From positions 1 to 40,712 of the forward strand of contig JACQCJ010000058.1 in assembly GCA_016201685.1 (NCBI GenBank): 40,712 nucleotides of DNA. Reading direction: 5' to 3'. This DNA comes from Candidatus Peregrinibacteria bacterium. Lineage in GTDB: Bacteria > Patescibacteriota > Gracilibacteria > Peribacterales > Peribacteraceae. Below the pieces are notes generated by a model that ran no database searches, was not told where the DNA came from, and saw only the letters and a list, made by a program, of their open reading frames with translations. The translations under genes were made by a program, and so were the position numbers. Positions within the stretch are counted from its first letter, which is position 1. Each line of letters begins with the position of its first letter. This document shows, piece after piece, positions 20,847 to 36,569 of this stretch.

Positions 20847-20932
20847 AATTGCGAAGGGCGAAGGGCGAGTTGCGAATGACGAATTGTGAGAGCGGCCATG
20901 TCATCCTGAGCCTGTCGAAGGGTGGCCGCCGA
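20847..20932. repeat. Composite MITE-like element: GCGAA-rich arm plus 43-nt hairpin core (copy A)
   Basis: GAATTGCGAAGGGCGAAGGGCGAGTTGCGAATGACGAATTG followed by TGAGAGCGGCCATGTCATCCTGAGCCTGTCGAAGGGTGGCCGC (20888-20930). The reverse complement of the core matches 35137-35179 at 41/43. Confidence 0.85.
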
Positions 20933-25173: not shown

Positions 25174-25231
25174 AATGACCGATGACCGATGACCAGTCGT
25201 TGGTCATTGGTGCTCGGGTGATTGGTCATTT
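25174..25231. repeat. Imperfect palindrome built from GACCGAT/ATTGGTC heptamers
   Basis: AATGACCGATGACCGATGACCAGTCGTTGGTCATTGGTGCTCGGGTGATTGGTCATT, followed by a T-rich tract. It may also act as terminator for the upstream gene. Confidence 0.6.
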
Positions 25232-25243
25232 CCTGTTTGTTGT

Positions 25244-25272
25244 TTGCACTTGTCGGACCAAAGAGATAGATT
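25244..25272 (+). promoter_or_regulatory. Promoter of the small zinc-ribbon gene (leaderless geometry)
   Basis: TTGCAC (25244-25249), 17-nt spacer, TAGATT (25267-25272), then 8 nt to ATG 25281. Confidence 0.4.
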
Positions 25273-25280
25273 CGGATCTT

Positions 25281-25526
25281 ATGCAGGAAGTCCGAATCGA
25301 ACCCATCGATGAGACCGCTCAAAAGCTGCCTTGCCGATGTGGGAAACCGGGTCACGGATGGGATCGCATCGAAGATGTCGTCTGCTGTCCGGAGTGCGAA
25401 GAACAGCTTGCTGTCGGCGAGGCAGAACCGCTCACTCTACGCACGCGGCGGCGGGATGACTGCGTTGCGTGCGGCAAATCAGGAAGCATCTGTTTGCGGA
25501 CTGCGTATCCGCCGAAAGAAAAGTGA
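25281..25526 (+). CDS. Small Cys-rich (zinc-ribbon-like) protein, 81 aa
   Basis: MQEVRIEPIDETAQKLPCRCGKPGHGWDRIEDVVCCPECEEQLAVGEAEPLTLRTRRRDDCVACGKSGSIC... has CxC, CCxxC and CxxC pairs. It has its own promoter upstream and a terminator at 25623-25652 downstream. Confidence 0.45.
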   Translation: MQEVRIEPIDETAQKLPCRCGKPGHGWDRIEDVVCCPECEEQLAVGEAEPLTLRTRRRDDCVACGKSGSICLRTAYPPKEK

Positions 25527-25738: not shown

Positions 25739-25752
25739 TTTTGTCCTTCCGC

Positions 25753-26373
25753 ATGCAGTTTTCCCGTGTTCGCCGCCGCATCGTCGTCGCAAGCGTGAGC
25801 GCGTCGCTCTTGGTTGTGTTGATCTATGTCACGACGATCGGATGGGTGCTCGCGCACGAGAGGGGATCGGCCCACCTCCCCGCCGAGTGCGGCATCGTCT
25901 TCGGCGCGACGGTTCACGTCGTGTGGAATGAGGCGGGAACGACGATCATCGGATCGGAGGCGGGCCCGGGCATCCGGCGAAGAATTGACACGGCCATTGA
26001 TTTATATCAAAAAGGCCTTATTCACCGTCTTTTCCTCACAGGAGGAAAAGGGGAGGGGATGATCCAGAGCGAAGCCGAGGTGATGCGGCGGCTTGCGGTG
26101 CGAAGCGGCGTTCGAGCAGGGGATATCGTCACGGAACCCGCCTCGCGATCCACGAAGGAAAATCTCGAAGACGTTCGTCCACTCGTGGCTACGTGTTCCT
26201 CGGTCATCGGGATCAGCGACGGCTACCATCTTGCGCGAATCGAGTTTCTTGCTCGTCAGCAAGGCTGGAACTTGACAACCTATCCATCCGAAGTTCAGAC
26301 ATCATTATCCTTCGAAACGGCCAGCGTTCTGCGCGAAGCGGCCGGAATTCTGTATTACATGGTGTTACGGTGA
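25753..26373 (+). CDS. YdcF/SanA-like DUF218 family protein with N-terminal TM anchor
   Basis: IVVASVSASLLVVLIYVTTIGWVL anchor. GIVFGA...RRIDTAIDLYQKGLIHRLFLTGGKG....SEAEVMRRLAV..GV....I..E..SRST.EN...GISDGYHLARI is the typical DUF218 core. An alternative TTG start lies at 25741. Confidence 0.8.
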   Translation: MQFSRVRRRIVVASVSASLLVVLIYVTTIGWVLAHERGSAHLPAECGIVFGATVHVVWNEAGTTIIGSEAGPGIRRRIDTAIDLYQKGLIHRLFLTGGKGEGMIQSEAEVMRRLAVRSGVRAGDIVTEPASRSTKENLEDVRPLVATCSSVIGISDGYHLARIEFLARQQGWNLTTYPSEVQTSLSFETASVLREAAGILYYMVLR

Positions 26374-26392
26374 TAGGAATTTTTCATTTGCC

Positions 26393-26414
26393 AAAGCAGA
26401 ATCGATTCTGCTTT
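26393..26414 (+). terminator. Perfect 22-nt palindrome AAAGCAGAATCGATTCTGCTTT (terminator of the DUF218 gene, or a recombinase site)
   Basis: Lies 20 nt after the stop at 26371-26373 and is followed by TATGTTG. It can also be read as an 11-6-11 dif-like site (26390-26417) about 300 bp upstream of the xer-like gene. Confidence 0.4.
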
Positions 26415-26717
26415 ATGTTGAATTCTTTTGAATCGCCCTGTGGAAAACTCCTGCGATGGAAGAGCGAAAGGAAAAGTGCGACGTTCGCAGTATTTTTTAG
26501 ATTTTTATTTTCCTTTGCACTTCGCCATCGATGTCCTCAAATATTCAGATCTCAAGGTCATCTCATACCCAAGAGTTCCGAAACGAGCCTCTACGGGGCT
26601 GTTTTGAGGGAAGTGCCAATTTGAGAAGGATTTTGGCCTCAATCAGCTGATCCTCTTTTGAACAGATTCTGGCAATGTCTTCTTGATATTCAAGATAAGA
26701 TGCATTATGTTGAAACT

Positions 26718-27659
26718 ATGAAACTACAATTCCACTCCCCTCTGGCCAGCGCCATCAACCGCTATTTCTCTTTTTTGAAGTCGGAAGAAAACAAATCGAC
26801 ACTCACCGTCCAAAACTATCGTCAGTCGCTGGATCTTTTTTTGACACAATCCCCTCTTCAGGATGTAAAAGGCTTTTCAAAAGAAGCCGTCCGCGCTTAC
26901 AAGGAGAAATTGCATGAATTCCGCACGAGACAGGGGAAGGAATTATCCATCCGGACAAAAAATCACCATTTGACGGTGTTGCGTGCTTTTCTTCGGTATC
27001 TGATACAAGAAGAAGAATTGGATACCTATCCGCCAGACCGAGTGAAGCGATTCAAAGAAGAGCAGAGGAAAGTCAAAGTGTTGTACATCGATGATCTGAA
27101 AAGGCTGTTGGAAGCGCCCGATCATGAAAGCAAGGATGGAAAGAGAGACCGGGCCATATTGCAACTTTTTTTCTCCACGGGTTTGCGTCTGGCTGAATTG
27201 CGGTCGCTCAATCGCAAAGATCTGAATTTTCAGACACGCGAGATCAGCGTGCGCGGCAAACGAAACAAACTCCGGGTCGTGTTTCTCTCGGATGCCGCCG
27301 TTGACGCATTACAAACGTATCTGAATGTTCGCCTTGATCATCTTCATCCGCTTTTCATTCATTATAACGATAAGGCTGCGCAGGAGATGCCCCCGGGGGA
27401 GAATTTTCGCCTGACCAGTAATGCCATTTACCGCATTGTGAAGAAATACGCCCGAATGGCGGGGATCGTTTCCGATCCTTCTCCTCATACTCTGCGCCAT
27501 TCCTTCGCGACTAATCTGCTCCAAAACGGCGCCGACCTTCGTTCCGTTCAAGAAATGCTCGGTCATAAAGATCTCTCGACAACGCAGATCTATACGCATG
27601 TCACCGATCCTCAGTTGAAAGAGGCCCACAGGAAGTTTCATGGCCTTCGTAAGGAATAA
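26718..27659 (+). CDS. Tyrosine site-specific recombinase, XerC/XerD-like
   Basis: N-terminal SAM-like domain (TVQNYRQSLDLFL, NHHLTVLRAFLRYL). Catalytic core: RDRAILQLFFSTGLRLAELRSL...ISVRGKRNKLRVVFLS...PHTLRHSFATNLLQNGADLRSVQEMLGHKDLSTTQIYTHV (R..HxxR..Y). Start taken at MKLQFHS (26718). Confidence 0.88.
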   Translation: MKLQFHSPLASAINRYFSFLKSEENKSTLTVQNYRQSLDLFLTQSPLQDVKGFSKEAVRAYKEKLHEFRTRQGKELSIRTKNHHLTVLRAFLRYLIQEEELDTYPPDRVKRFKEEQRKVKVLYIDDLKRLLEAPDHESKDGKRDRAILQLFFSTGLRLAELRSLNRKDLNFQTREISVRGKRNKLRVVFLSDAAVDALQTYLNVRLDHLHPLFIHYNDKAAQEMPPGENFRLTSNAIYRIVKKYARMAGIVSDPSPHTLRHSFATNLLQNGADLRSVQEMLGHKDLSTTQIYTHVTDPQLKEAHRKFHGLRKE

Positions 27660-27675
27660 TGCGCATTCTCACACT

Positions 27676-28034
27676 ATGGAAAAGGCAAGAAAAGGTATGG
27701 TTGGCATCTATCAGATTTGGCGAATGGCACTCATATCAACAGAGCATTGCAGGAATCTTGGAAGAAGCATGGTCCGGTCTCTTTTCAATTTTCGATTCTG
27801 GAGATCATCGGTGATACAGATGCTCTTCCGGAACGTGAGATCCATTGGCTTGAAAAGACAGGAGCACTCACTCTTGGCTTCAATACGAAAACCGATCAAT
27901 ACAAGGATCGAACATTGATCAGTGTTCATAGAATGACAAAGAATCAGAAAACTCATGGAATTTTTCAAAGCGGGAGGCGGGAAAGGAAGTTCATAAAAAA
28001 TACCACGGACGAAGCGAGAAACGGGTCACCCTGA
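27676..28034 (+). pseudogene. Decayed GIY-YIG (homing-endonuclease-type) nuclease gene
   Basis: The GIY motif is in one frame (MEKARKGMVGIYQIW, from 27676). The later part of the domain is in another frame (27717-: ANGTHINRALQESWKKHGPVSFQFSILEIIGDTDALPEREIHWLEKTGALTLGFN). The YIG..R segment between them is absent. Confidence 0.5.
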
Positions 28035-28075
28035 GCCCGCCAGCCCTAGCCGTTCGGACGGGTCGAACGGGTGAC
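28024..28075. repeat. REP-like inverted-repeat element GGGTCACCCTGAGC...GTCGAACGGGTGAC
   Basis: GGGTCACCCTGAGCCCGCCAGCCCTAGCCGTTCGGACGGGTCGAACGGGTGAC, with terminal inverted repeat GGGTCACCC / GGGTGAC. It sits between two relic copies of the xer 3' end. Confidence 0.65.
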
Positions 28076-28139
28076 GAATCCCAGTTGAAAGAGGCGCATA
28101 GAAAATACCACGGTAGGAGCGAGTAGAGGGTCACCTCGA

Positions 28140-28781
28140 TTATCGTGCGCCTCCTTCTGTGCACGGCACCGTGGGATCCGCGATGCAGTTCTCCGTGGGC
28201 GGCTTGCCGCGTTCGGGACAGGTGCGCGAGTAGAGACAGGCATCGCTGGCCATTCCGCTCAGCGCTCGTTGAATGCGCGGGGTGTCCCGCCACGATTCAG
28301 CGACGCCATAAGCGCTGTAGTAGACCAGAATCTGATCATCGTCCTTGAACATGTAATTCCGGACGAAGGGAATCTCCACGCCGTTCACGAACATTCTGGG
28401 ATTGGGCAACCAGGTACAGTCATAAGGGGGGCTGCTTGTCTTGTGGAAAACGCAATCGAGTTCAAACCCGATTGAATGGAGGAAATCGCCGAAACCGAGC
28501 CCAGTCTTGTGTCGGTGGATCACGTGCCCGTTCCCATCGTGGAGGTGAATGTACAGGCGGGGATCAACTGGTTTGAGTTTCGCCTCTTTCTCTTCCGTCA
28601 TCATGTACTCCGGGGCGGAGAAATCGATTTTTTCCCATCCGTCCCACACAGCAAAATCCGCATGCGCGTGGTTGGGATCGGGATTCTTCGCGGGCTCGGC
28701 GACGATCGAAACGGAGGAAACATACATAATGACCACGACAGAGCCGATGAGAAGCAGGAACGCCCAGACAAGATGACGCAT
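28140..28781 (-). CDS. Secreted/anchored His- and Cys-rich protein of unknown function (213 aa)
   Basis: N-terminal anchor LVWAFLLLIGSVVVIMYV. HAHADFAVWDGWEKIDFS...YIHLHDGNGHVIHRHKTGLGFGDFLHSIGFEL. 6 Cys in the C-terminal half. I recall similar uncharacterised proteins in uncultivated bacteria and archaea, but no named family. Confidence 0.65.
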   Translation of the reverse strand: MRHLVWAFLLLIGSVVVIMYVSSVSIVAEPAKNPDPNHAHADFAVWDGWEKIDFSAPEYMMTEEKEAKLKPVDPRLYIHLHDGNGHVIHRHKTGLGFGDFLHSIGFELDCVFHKTSSPPYDCTWLPNPRMFVNGVEIPFVRNYMFKDDDQILVYYSAYGVAESWRDTPRIQRALSGMASDACLYSRTCPERGKPPTENCIADPTVPCTEGGAR

Positions 28782-30250: not shown

Positions 30251-30326
30251 GCCACGGTAGCTCAGTTGGTAGAGCACAGGACTCATAAGCCTGGGGTCGT
30301 CGGTTCAATCCCGACCCGTGGCACCA
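30251..30326 (+). tRNA. tRNA with CAT anticodon (elongator Met or lysidine-modified Ile2; not initiator-like), CCA encoded
   Basis: GCCACGG-TA-GCTC-AGTTGGTA-GAGC-A-CAGGA-CTCATAA-GCCTG-GGGTC-GTCGG-TTCAATC-CCGAC-CCGTGGC-A-CCA. It lacks the three G-C pairs at the base of the anticodon stem that initiators have. Confidence 0.88.
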
Positions 30327-30492
30327 TTCGACTCGCAGTTCGTGTGCGAACTGCTCGCTCACGGTAAACCACGATCACTATTTGCAAGCGAGGCAAATGA
30401 CAGTGAGCGAAGCGCCGCAGCGCGAAGTCGAACTGCCCTACAAAACAACACACAAACCGTCTGGTATCATCACTGCCATACCCTGGTTCACC

Positions 30493-30720
30493 ATGAGCGC
30501 CGTCGAATGGTTCGTCTACATCGCACAAGCTCCGACAGGCCGGTACTACACTGGCATTACGACTGATCCCAAGAGACGCAATCAAGAGCATAACCGTGAT
30601 GAAGGTGCGAAATTTGCACATGATCAAGATGCACTGAGACTCCTCTACACATCGCCTCCTTTTCCAGACCAATCCGCGGCCAGGTTTCGAGAAGTACAGA
30701 TCAAAGGTTGGACACGCTAA
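30493..30720 (+). CDS. Small GIY-YIG nuclease family protein (YhbQ/UPF0213-like)
   Basis: MSAVEWFVYIAQAPTGRYYTGITTDPKRRNQEHNRDEGAKFAHDQDALRLLYTSPPFPDQSAARFREVQIKGWTR has (W)FVYI...YYTG...R..EH...E..IKGW.R. Confidence 0.75.
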   Translation: MSAVEWFVYIAQAPTGRYYTGITTDPKRRNQEHNRDEGAKFAHDQDALRLLYTSPPFPDQSAARFREVQIKGWTR

Positions 30721-35135: not shown

Positions 35136-35234
35136 CGCGGCCACCCTTCGACAAGCTCAGGGTGACATGGCCGCTCTCAGGTTCTTACAATTTTGAATTC
35201 TGATTCGCAATTCGCCACTTGCAATTCGCAATTC
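35136..35234. repeat. Composite MITE-like element (copy C, inverted relative to copy A)
   Basis: GCGGCCACCCTTCGACAAGCTCAGGGTGACATGGCCGCTCTCA (35137-35179) followed by ...GATTCGCAATTCGCCACTTGCAATTCGCAATTC. The core matches the reverse complement of 20888-20930 at 41/43. Confidence 0.85.
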
Positions 35235-35246
35235 ATCCCTCAATCA

Positions 35247-36569
35247 ATGTCTCTCTTCTCTCCCATCCACCACACGTTCGCCCCTCTTGCAGACGCACGG
35301 CTGCGCCGCTGCGCCCGCGCACTCTCGTACCTGCCATGGCGCTACAAGCGCGGACCGTACAGTGAAAAACTCCGAAGGGCGCTCGAGGAGAAATTCGGGG
35401 GAAGAGCCTTCCTCTTCTCCACCGGCCGCGAGGCGCTCTTCGCGTTTCTTCAATCGATTCCCTCAAAACCCGGCGACGAAGTGATCATCCAGAGTTACAC
35501 CTGCGTTGTCGTCCCAAATGCCATTCATGCCGCCGGACTCAAGACGGTCTACTGCGACATCGAACGCGACACGCTGAGTCTGGATTGCGAAGAGATCGAA
35601 GTGCTCATCACGCCGAAGACGTGTGCGATCATTTGCCAACACACCTTCGGCATTCCCGCGGACACCAAGCGCCTGCGGGAAATCTGTGACCGTCACGGGA
35701 TTCTGCTCATCGAAGACTGCGCGCACGTGATCCCGGATGAAACCGGACCACGCGACATCGGAACAGAGGGCGATGCGCTCCTTCTCAGTTTCGGCCGAGA
35801 CAAAGCCATCTCCGGCATCACCGGCGGGGCCATCATCAGCCGCGTTGCCTCGGCGAATCCCACGCTCGAGCGGATGGCCAAGCACGCGCACGATCTCTCC
35901 TTCTTCACGATTCTGCGGCTGCTCGAATACCCGAACATCTACGGCTGGGCGAAGCTCTTCTACGGCCTTGGGATGGGCAAATTCTCGCTCTTCCTGCACT
36001 CAAAGATCGGAGCGCTTCGACCCATTCTAACAAGCGACGAAAAACATGGCCGCATGCGCACGGTCCTCCACCGCATCCCCGACGTCTGCGCCGCCCTCGC
36101 CCTCGAACAACTGGAGCGTCTACGGGAACTGAATGATCATCGGAGGATGTTGACGAAGTTTTTCCTTGAGGAAGGAAAAAAGAGAAGATGGCCGATGCTA
36201 CATTGCTTCTGTCCTGGTGAGCGCGTCGAACCATGGACAGAAGCAAAATTGTCGACCCTTCGACGGGCTCAGGGTGACAATTTGATAGTTGTTCAGGAAT
36301 CTCCCCTCCAAAAATTCCCCCTCTTCGTCCGCGGCGCCGAAAAAATCCGCCGCGCGCTCAAGAAAAAAAATATTCATCTCCACGACGGCTGGACGGGCTG
36401 TGTCGTGTGCCCCGCCTCCGTGCACCTCCCCGATACCGGCTATGAAATGGGCAACGATCTGGCGGCCGAAGCCGTCTGCGAAGAAATCCTCAGCTTGCCG
36501 ACGCATCCGACGATGAGTCTGAAGCAGGCAAAAGAGCTTGTGGAAGCCCTGGATCATCTGCTTCAATGA
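35247..36569 (+). CDS. DegT/DnrJ/EryC1/StrS-family PLP-dependent sugar aminotransferase, carrying an in-frame repeat-derived insertion
   Basis: STGREALFAFLQSI...GDEVIIQSYTCVVVPNAI..AGLKTVYCDI......IICQHTFGIPAD...I.....GILLIEDCAH.....LLLSFGRDKAISG (Schiff-base Lys). Residues around ..EAKLSTLRRAQGDNL.. are encoded by the REP core at 36251-36278. Confidence 0.85.
   Translation: MSLFSPIHHTFAPLADARLRRCARALSYLPWRYKRGPYSEKLRRALEEKFGGRAFLFSTGREALFAFLQSIPSKPGDEVIIQSYTCVVVPNAIHAAGLKTVYCDIERDTLSLDCEEIEVLITPKTCAIICQHTFGIPADTKRLREICDRHGILLIEDCAHVIPDETGPRDIGTEGDALLLSFGRDKAISGITGGAIISRVASANPTLERMAKHAHDLSFFTILRLLEYPNIYGWAKLFYGLGMGKFSLFLHSKIGALRPILTSDEKHGRMRTVLHRIPDVCAALALEQLERLRELNDHRRMLTKFFLEEGKKRRWPMLHCFCPGERVEPWTEAKLSTLRRAQGDNLIVVQESPLQKFPLFVRGAEKIRRALKKKNIHLHDGWTGCVVCPASVHLPDTGYEMGNDLAAEAVCEEILSLPTHPTMSLKQAKELVEALDHLLQ

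Follow-up and report, generated by a model that had tools for sequence, protein, structure and literature searches.

The stretch of DNA under study, hereafter the window, covers 40,712 nucleotides from a Candidatus Peregrinibacteria bacterium (assembly GCA_016201685.1, contig JACQCJ010000058.1, positions 1 to 40,712). It contains a locus at which the 3' end of xer, the gene of a tyrosine recombinase, is present three times: once as the working end of the gene (copy 1) and twice downstream, as relics (copies 2 and 3). The remains of a GIY-YIG gene occupy the interval between copies 1 and 2, and an inverted repeat lies between copies 2 and 3 (Table 1). The GIY-YIG gene located 3' of xer, in the window and in related genomes, is termed here the homing endonuclease gene (HEG). 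Related loci that were fetched for comparison carry L-numbers, the intact GIY-YIG homologues are numbered P0121 to P0128, and the Xer protein of the window is P0001.

Table 1. Positions in the window of the features of the xer locus and of the associated short repeat
Feature	Position	Strand	Remarks
Left edge of the putative replaced block	26290..26373	+	last ~28 codons of the DUF218 gene (coding sequence 25741-26373)
AT-rich spacer 5' of xer	26374..26702	+	GC ~0.40; part of the putative replaced block
xer	26703..27659	+	intact XerD-like tyrosine recombinase; apparently a foreign allele
Copy 1, working xer 3' end	27600..27659	+	..THVTDPQLKEAHRKFHGLRKE, stop at 27657-27659
GIY-YIG HEG pseudogene	27676..27982	+	starts 16 nt past the xer stop
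Copy 2, xer tail relic	27983..28021	+	KEVHKKYHGRSE; AAA in the stop position
GC-rich inverted repeat, 53 nt	28023..28075	+	GGGTCACCC..GGGTGAC
Copy 3, xer tail relic	28071..28126	+	GTGACGAAT CC- CAG..QLKEAHRKYHGRSE, stop at 28124-28126
9 nt past the copy 3 stop	28127..28135	+	AGGGTCACC; counterpart past copy 2, CGGGTCACC
24-nt repeat copy	20900..20923	+	hairpin-forming
24-nt repeat copy	35143..35166	-	hairpin-forming
24-nt repeat copy	36255..36278	-	hairpin-forming

Two start codons are candidates for the intact xer gene (ATG at 26703 or 26721), while the mechanically called open reading frame (ORF) begins at TTG 26658. The product matched the Pfam families Phage_integrase (PF00589, 1.3e-45) and SAM-like N-domain (PF02899, 9e-09), and its catalytic residues R156, K180, H256, R259, H282 and Y291 were all located in invariant columns of the alignment. 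The best 120 relatives by Xer match, which constitute the family sample, are 70-79% identical to it; a scan of genome contigs with the Xer alignment returned distant Xers only (33-46% identity) and no Peregrinibacteria among the matches listed. The gene is a syntenic core gene of the Peregrinibacteria, and the xer of the window fits the gene order kept among relatives (PGK, a hypothetical protein of ~530 aa, DUF218 and xer). The C-terminus of the protein is nearly fixed, reading ..TTQIYTHVTNPQLKEVH[KR]K[FY]HG followed by 0-20 variable residues, and tails of the 'HGL..' type, as in copy 1, are common among the Xer relatives.

A threefold xer 3' end had been reported in a first-pass annotation of the window, and all three copies are indeed present, at coordinates that had to be corrected to those of Table 1. 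Alignment of these segments, as proposed at that time, placed their similarity above that of shuffled sequence. Copies 2 and 3 are identical at 37 of 48 ungapped positions (77%), as opposed to 30 in the best of 200 shuffles, and copy 3 aligned with the xer 3' ends of the window and its relatives at z = 4.4-12.9 (8.3-12.9 for three functional ends), with none of 500 shuffles reaching the score. Copies 1 and 3 are 74% identical over 39 nt. When the window is translated in all six frames, KE[VAI]H[KR]K[FY]HG is met with three times as a peptide pattern, versus an expectation of 3.7e-7.

Copy 2 is joined straight onto the decayed C-terminus of the GIY-YIG pseudogene. Copy 3 has lost 1 nt from the CCCC run within ..AATCCCCAG.. 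and ends 13 nt from the stop of a convergent gene (28140-28781, minus strand). The two relics are spaced 105 nt apart in a single open frame that lacks a start codon. As the first-pass annotation had recognized, they also have common sequence beyond their ends, which amounts to the 9 nt past the stop position (GGGTCACC); the likeness between the two 105-nt units ends after 48 nt. A 14-nt patch, CAGTTGAAAGAGGC, is identical in copy 1 (27612-27625) and copy 3 (28082-28095). Inside it lies KEAH, a V-to-A codon change that is unique among the 120 Xers and yet occurs in both copies, which suggests either gene conversion between the copies or a parallel escape mutation. As to a difference between alleles with and without an HEG, there is one weak hint: KEVH is intact in 4 of 9 functional tails of HEG-bearing loci versus 92 of 120 overall.

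The inverted repeat described earlier between copies 2 and 3 is also present, though with a length of 53 nt and a predicted fold (-24 kcal/mol) that is no better than those of shuffles (z = -1.05). The right arm and copy 3 overlap by 5 nt (GTGAC), at the first codons of the relic. The ends of the hairpin match a 24-nt repeat, GTCAYCCTGAGCYYGTCGAAGGGT, of which it represents a variant enlarged by an internal insert of 23 nt. The hairpin as such is single-copy, and the repeat family comprises four copies in 40.7 kb, the variant counted. Since the hairpin ends match a multi-copy repeat, the original term 'REP-like' is a fair description. None of the other 99 loci fetched by the time of the scan contained a member of the family. 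Two of the repeat copies have longer flanking complementarity (CGGCCA..TGGCCG), and all look intergenic by the ORF list except the one at 36255. This copy is located inside an ORF of the DegT/DnrJ aminotransferase type (35193-36569, plus strand), which matches positions 20-192 only of a 360-position profile, and the gene may be disrupted. A 39-nt stretch inside the hairpin was considered as decayed xer and rejected; its similarity is at shuffle level, and it matches the local repeat family instead.

The GIY-YIG family and its position in related genomes

The GIY-YIG relic is split over reading frames and lacks the segment from YIG to the catalytic Arg, as stated in the first-pass annotation. 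A 79-nt deletion at 27717^27718 accounts for a shift of the frame and for the loss of 26 codons, among them those of YIGSS and of the catalytic Arg. The other lesions are a frameshift of ~+7 nt near 27946 and a further deletion in the region of the C-terminal helix. The relic itself has lost the GIY-YIG catalytic feature, with both YIG and Arg deleted. The profile search that had been suggested for its half-frames gave no Pfam match, whether the frames were taken separately or stitched, and the identification therefore rests on homologues obtained by sequence search. The stitched translation matched eight intact GIY-YIG proteins of 140-166 aa (P0121-P0128) at E = 6e-31 to 1e-20, and by this similarity the copy in the window is a pseudogene of their family.

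All eight intact homologues carry PF01541 (45-54 bits versus a cut-off of 22.6), and a weak match to SegE_GIY-YIG was also obtained. Their alignment contains GIYQI, Y[IV]GSS, NNR and RE[IL], and GFN is invariant. The family profile matched the catalytic domain of I-TevI (PDB 1mk0/1ln0) at E = 6e-18. An AlphaFold2 model compared with 1ln0/1mk0 by Foldseek gave a probability of 1.0 and TM-scores of 0.77-0.84 by the I-TevI chain and 0.54-0.56 by the model, at a root-mean-square deviation of 2.0-2.2 Å. Annotated homing endonucleases of phages share 41-44% identity with the catalytic domain. Neither a group I intron nor any other Rfam family was detected around the HEG, which is therefore regarded as free-standing. 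The GC content of the HEGs (0.38-0.49; 0.43 for the relic of the window) lies under that of every host. An exhaustive profile search of a library of 1.84 billion representatives suggests that the 140-aa GIY-YIG family is small; its best 70 hits included ~35 clusters of full-length proteins at 50% identity. A search with a second nuclease type (HEG-B) returned only itself.

The catalytic domain is followed by a conserved C-terminal module of ~45 aa, RTLISVHM-TKKxLExLKLGSMNKTIQHLLxFY, which corresponds to residues ~105-140 of P0121-P0128 and, in decayed form, to positions 27900-27982 of the window. It has no Pfam match, and its strand-helix-helix pattern (pLDDT 37-62) recalls ribbon-helix-helix DNA binders; this reading was set aside, with neither Pfam support nor a confident model behind it. 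An origin of the module from the C-terminal region of Xer was also rejected (profile-profile probability 2.6%), just the last few residues being xer-derived.

Among the Peregrinibacteria, an HEG was found 11-133 nt downstream of the xer stop, within the same order of genes, in 10 of 10 independent loci with readable context: P0121, P0122 (L085), P0124 (L089), P0125 (L090), P0126, P0127 (L086-88), P0128 (L100/101), L091, L092 and L093. Four related loci (L081, L082-84, L102 and L103) have no HEG and one tail each. Single intact HEGs occur in L085, L086-88, L089, L090, L091 and the contigs carrying P0121 and P0126, and two HEGs are arranged in tandem in L092, L093 and L100/101. The presence of zero, one or two HEGs, intact genes included, bears out the earlier expectation that the xer loci of relatives would vary in this manner. 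The xer reading frame is intact at every locus compared, and the HEG follows the xer C-terminus in L085-L093 and L100. The tandem paralogues (L092, 2546-3400; L093, 192-1000; L100, 395-1284) are ~36-45% identical. The first HEG of L100 has Ala at the position of the catalytic Arg (NNAF versus NNRL) and, judging from this residue, may be inactive. On the other side of xer, DUF218 is absent between the ~530-aa hypothetical protein and xer in L103 and the P0121 contig, and the left neighbour of xer is therefore not fixed across the phylum.

Extra xer tails are restricted to the HEG-bearing loci. Downstream relics were observed in L085, L086, L089, L090, L092 and L100, and L091 has none; they range in length from 5 to 62 codons and are diverged in sequence. 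In L085, the HEG ORF (P0122) ends with KFNGR and a stop codon, after which a 62-codon xer relic follows. L090 has one relic between xer and the HEG and a second one past the HEG, and L092 has two. The HEG ORFs of L089, L086 and L100 read into an xer-tail remnant (..TNTQLRVTHPHLKEVQRKYHARG.., ..KFHGKGE and ..HANPPTKESI, respectively), and among the intact homologues such remnants form the ends of P0124 (..RVTHPHLKEVQRKYHARG..), P0127 (..KFHGKGE), P0122 (..KFNGR) and the homologue in L092 (KMVHRKYHGK). The tails of a given locus differ at 32 synonymous versus 11 non-synonymous codons in L085 and at 13 versus 1 in L090. Differences that are mainly synonymous indicate that the tails are distinct alleles, selected in different genomes, and not decayed local copies.

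The HEGs also differ from their hosts in their relationships. L091 and L092 are 95% identical in Xer and 73% in the flanks, their HEGs just 53%. Pairwise identities in a few loci, on which the discordance between element and host rests, show to this extent that HEG similarity does not follow host relatedness.

Origin of the xer allele in the window

Flanks and xer were compared with those of a close relative, L082 (GCA_016178535.1). The flanking proteins of the two genomes are 89.7% (PGK), 90.6% (hypothetical protein) and 86.6% (DUF218) identical, at 85-93% identity of the DNA. In Xer the identity is 78.5% for the protein and 66-73% for the DNA along the full length of the gene (71.5% of nucleotides overall, versus 86-90% in the flanking genes), which is no higher than that to a genome with ~52% identical flanking proteins. 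In the calibration pair, L091 and L092, it is Xer that is better conserved (95%, flanks 73%). Sliding identity to L082 amounts to 0.79-0.91 until ~26300, declines to 0.64 and then to 0.51, and stays low through the spacer and xer. The last 29 aa of DUF218 are 59% identical, versus 86.6% for the whole protein, and the spacer at 26374-26702 is practically unalignable with the equally long spacer of L082 (identity 0.43-0.51).

The composition of the region was also distinctive. The third-position GC of the window xer is 0.54, versus 0.69-0.79 in the flanks of the window and 0.73 in the xer of L082, and in five other loci the xer lay within the flank range or at most 0.08 under the lowest flank. 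Since the window xer is the outlier, it is the window allele, and not that of L082, that appears to have been exchanged. The entire block from 26.3 to 28.0 kb has a GC content of 0.40-0.52, as opposed to 0.56-0.63 in the flanks, in agreement with the AT-richness described in the first-pass annotation. Identity and composition together show, at the level of sequence comparison, that the xer of the window is of foreign origin. Low xer identity and low third-position GC argue that the block at ~26290-28070 represents a foreign xer allele plus HEG that replaced the resident xer. The block includes the end of DUF218, the spacer, the putative foreign xer, the dead HEG and a tail relic, and ends where copy 3 begins; no resident xer body is left upstream. 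The closest Xer relatives (P0002, P0010, P0004 and P0006) were considered as possible donors and rejected, since all four lack an HEG.

The tails were compared with that of L082 as well. The first part of copy 3 matches it at 28 of 30 positions; copy 1 is visibly poorer, although it was not scored over the same 30 nt. In the stretch from QLKE to the stop, copies 1 and 3 both match L082 at 33 of 45 positions. Copy 3 ends in ..HGRSE and L082 in ..HGRSM, and 'HGRS' occurs in only 1 of the 120 relatives, which is L082 itself. This type of ending ties copies 2 and 3 to L082, and copy 3 is read as a stub of the resident xer 3' end. The stronger evidence for a displaced native end comes from the gene as a whole, the working xer being foreign.

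Proposed homing at the xer 3' end and its alternatives

The three tails, the identity of the HEG and its decay, its linkage to xer and its presence/absence polymorphism are plainly visible in the loci compared. The block at ~26290-28070 is probably the footprint of a free-standing GIY-YIG HEG that is resident at the xer 3' end of Peregrinibacteria. What we infer beyond this is how the enzyme would cleave xer, in what order the events would have taken place and where the second stub would have come from. An enzyme composed of an I-TevI-type catalytic domain and a short C-terminal module would cut an HEG-less xer in its highly conserved 3' region, and the break would be repaired off an HEG-carrying donor. 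The HEG would be copied in together with donor xer sequence, which would provide a working 3' end, and the recipient's own 3' end would be pushed further downstream and persist there as a dead stub. The conversion tract in the window, or some equivalent recombination, would have covered the whole of xer, the upstream spacer and the end of DUF218, and the resident xer would have been replaced by a lower-GC foreign allele. Copy 3 would be the leftover resident tail and copy 2 a tail that had been displaced earlier and is now joined to the HEG end, with the genome's own short repeat sitting between the two stubs. The decay of the HEG, by the 79-nt deletion and frameshifts, would be the expected close of a homing cycle in which all targets are occupied.

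This proposal retains the core of what the first-pass annotation had envisaged, namely the invasion of the end of xer by selfish elements. Point insertion near the xer stop does not describe the event in the window, which appears to have been a replacement of the whole xer. The hairpin had also been taken for a selfish insertion that regenerates a 3' end; nothing shows such a role for this variant of the repeat family, which overlaps copy 3 by 5 nt.

It is conceivable, although we regard it as doubtful, that the xer-tail stub at the end of the HEG forms the right homology arm of a cassette made up of an xer 3' part, the HEG and an xer tail. If so, both arms would lie within one gene conserved in the Peregrinibacteria, permitting homing despite unrelated DNA past xer, and the wholesale horizontal replacement of a core xer gene across an uncultivated phylum would be a side effect. 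The two-tail loci (L086, L089 and L100) would then represent crossovers inside the arm, and the three-tail loci (the window, L085, L090 and L092) repairs that missed it.

Several points weigh against homing as the origin of the block. To our knowledge, neither cleavage activity nor a target site is known for this GIY-YIG family of 140-166 aa. A protein of 140 aa is small for a sequence-specific homing endonuclease, and its C-terminal module lacks a Pfam match and was modelled at low confidence. The comparison of xer tails from loci with and without an HEG, which involved few sequences and synonymous noise, revealed no diagnostic nucleotide difference. No close donor was found, the best matches being 79% for Xer and ~70% for the HEG. 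A donor so divergent (~71% in xer) would be expected to recombine poorly by homology, which makes the left junction in DUF218 hard to account for. Taken over the full length, the identity of copy 3 to the L082 tail is ~79%, versus ~72% for copy 1, and its 'resident' status therefore leans mainly on its position, its first 30 nt and the rare HGRS. Copies 2 and 3 are closest to each other and both look to be of the resident type, so that the second stub calls for another homing event with a sister strain as donor, for a duplication local to the hairpin, or for gene conversion. Finally, the KEAH of copies 1 and 3, by conversion or parallel change, is not predicted by the simple model.

The GIY-YIG gene might instead be a vertically inherited accessory partner of xer, often lost and now decaying in the window, with the tails generated by local duplication or recombination. 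Such a partnership would agree with the strict adjacency of the two genes (10 of 10 loci) and with a small protein in which no DNA-binding domain is recognised, and cleavage by the enzyme is itself a deduction. We nevertheless consider it unlikely. An inherited partner would not be expected to show 53% identity where Xer shows 95%, or a GC content consistently under that of its host, and the tails within a locus differ chiefly at synonymous sites, as separately evolving functional alleles do. Moreover, the xer of the window appears to be foreign itself, and the four closest Xer relatives examined have no HEG.

A local tandem duplication at the hairpin, or slippage of replication there, with no mobile element and the GIY-YIG relic as an incidental neighbour, may well account for the second stub alone: copies 2 and 3, spaced 105 nt apart, keep one frame, show 77% identity, have the 9 nt past the stop position in common and enclose a repeat-family hairpin. 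As a full explanation it is contradicted, and we give it little credence. It leaves unexplained both the relation of copy 1 to copies 2 and 3 and the foreign xer allele. Furthermore, multi-tail architectures recur solely in HEG-bearing relatives, and the similarity between the 105-nt units does not extend beyond 48 nt.

Site-specific integration at the end of xer, by a small integrative element or an IMEX-like element that exploits Xer, would make the tails attL and attR. It is well established that integrative elements can restore the 3' end of the gene they target, and the AT-rich block does contain a tyrosine recombinase gene as well as a nuclease gene flanked by direct repeats. The Xer in question is, however, a syntenic core gene of the phylum, and the block replaces xer, with its left edge in DUF218 and no resident xer body upstream. 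The relics, diverged and of 5-62 codons, are unlike att sites of fixed length, and no dif-like palindrome was seen in the tail by eye, without a formal test. Integration of this kind is very improbable.

Least credible is an assembly artefact, in which a metagenome-assembled contig would be a chimera, with DNA of two co-occurring populations of Peregrinibacteria linked through the conserved xer or DUF218: the block boundaries do lie in or beside conserved coding sequence and synteny with relatives does stop right past copy 3, but a genome-specific repeat family and similar flank GC on both sides of the block mean that a double mis-join would be needed, and multi-tail HEG loci recur in independent assemblies of other samples. 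With repeat copies to the left (20900) and right (35143 and 36255) of the block, the contig probably represents one genome.

Known systems, surroundings and significance

The homing proposed here for the xer locus has its closest counterparts in the mobile endonuclease ORFs (mORFs) of fungal mitochondria, described in atp6 of Allomyces macrogynus and in atp6, atp9, cox2 and nad3 of Glomus sp. (Beaudet et al. 2013, PMC3630166). In these, a foreign C-terminus keeps the host gene intact, and the native C-terminus is found downstream of the endonuclease ORF (PMC3630166). The xer locus likewise has an endonuclease ORF just past an intact host ORF and what is read as a displaced native C-terminus, copies that differ mostly at synonymous sites, and presence/absence variation between close relatives; the enzyme in the Glomus atp9 case is also of the GIY-YIG type (PMC3630166). 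Two further mitochondrial genome papers (PMC4162613 and PMC5626475) were considered and added nothing to the analogy. The differences concern the host, which is a bacterial chromosome of the candidate phyla radiation (CPR), and the target, which is a tyrosine recombinase and not an organelle respiratory gene. In addition, the whole host gene appears to have been exchanged here and not the C-terminus alone, as many as three tails and a tandem pair of endonuclease genes can accumulate at the site, and the endonuclease ORF is separate, 16 nt past the xer stop, and not fused in phase. Beaudet et al. (2013) cite Paquin et al. (1994) on such hybrids. The architecture of the xer locus is that of the fungal mORFs, the C-terminal duplication design, in a bacterial chromosome.

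The HEG falls into the same branch of GIY-YIG nucleases as I-TevI and the Seg enzymes of T4-type phages, with which it has a homologous GIY-YIG catalytic domain and, in the case of Seg, the free-standing intergenic position in common. Seg and I-TevI spread when double-strand breaks are repaired and flanking markers are co-converted, and the same mode of spread is proposed for the xer HEG. In contrast to these enzymes, the xer HEG protein is shorter (140-166 aa versus ~220-245 aa), has no recognisable counterpart of their known DNA-binding modules and is encoded in a cellular chromosome, not a phage, with no intron.

Within the CPR, PMC11270868 reports insertions of LAGLIDADG homing endonucleases in rRNA genes. 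These are likewise homing-type selfish elements on highly conserved genes of the same radiation; they belong to another enzyme family and form intervening sequences in rRNA genes, with neither a protein-coding host gene nor a duplicated gene end described there. The hairpin can be likened to REP elements in that both its ends are those of a 24-nt repeat with three further copies in the window. It differs in the number of copies (four), in a fold that is not significantly stable and in its 23-nt insert. Full-text searches of the literature revealed neither a homing gene of the GIY-YIG type reported at xer nor a description of this architecture from the chromosomes of CPR or other bacteria.

Synteny with the relatives stops 13 nt past the copy 3 stop (window 28127 on). 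In L081, L082, L086 and L103, genes for TyrRS and a pseudouridine synthase are located 0.3-2.5 kb downstream of xer. None of the downstream genes of L082 (L082 4952-8951) was found anywhere in the window, and none of four tested window genes downstream of xer in any fetched Peregrinibacteria locus. In all relatives compared, the region past xer forms a hot spot of variation. Upstream, the window has a 470-nt insertion relative to L082 (25211-25680) between the gene of a 547-aa hypothetical protein and DUF218, in which there is a small Cys-rich ORF (25182-25526) without significant match in Pfam. Another small ORF of the GIY-YIG type, unrelated to the HEG (30382-30720, plus strand; PF01541, 4e-11), lies directly 3' of a tRNA-Met gene (30251-30326) and presumably resembles the UPF0213 type.

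If the block is the footprint of homing, the xer loci would display a selfish endonuclease in invasion, stacking and decay at one site in small CPR genomes, and such an element could introduce a core gene into a genome in the form of a foreign allele. Xer phylogenies, and inferences on dimer resolution based on xer, may then be confounded by allele exchange in the Peregrinibacteria. The same cycle would explain GIY-YIG ORFs that end in Xer peptides, as well as 'group I intron endonuclease' labels where there is no intron. The xer 3' end becomes the candidate natural target of the 140-aa GIY-YIG family, which would make its specificity testable. The design of replacement plus displaced native C-terminus would reach beyond fungal mitochondria, and the element would be a trace of DNA transfer among uncultivated episymbiotic lineages.

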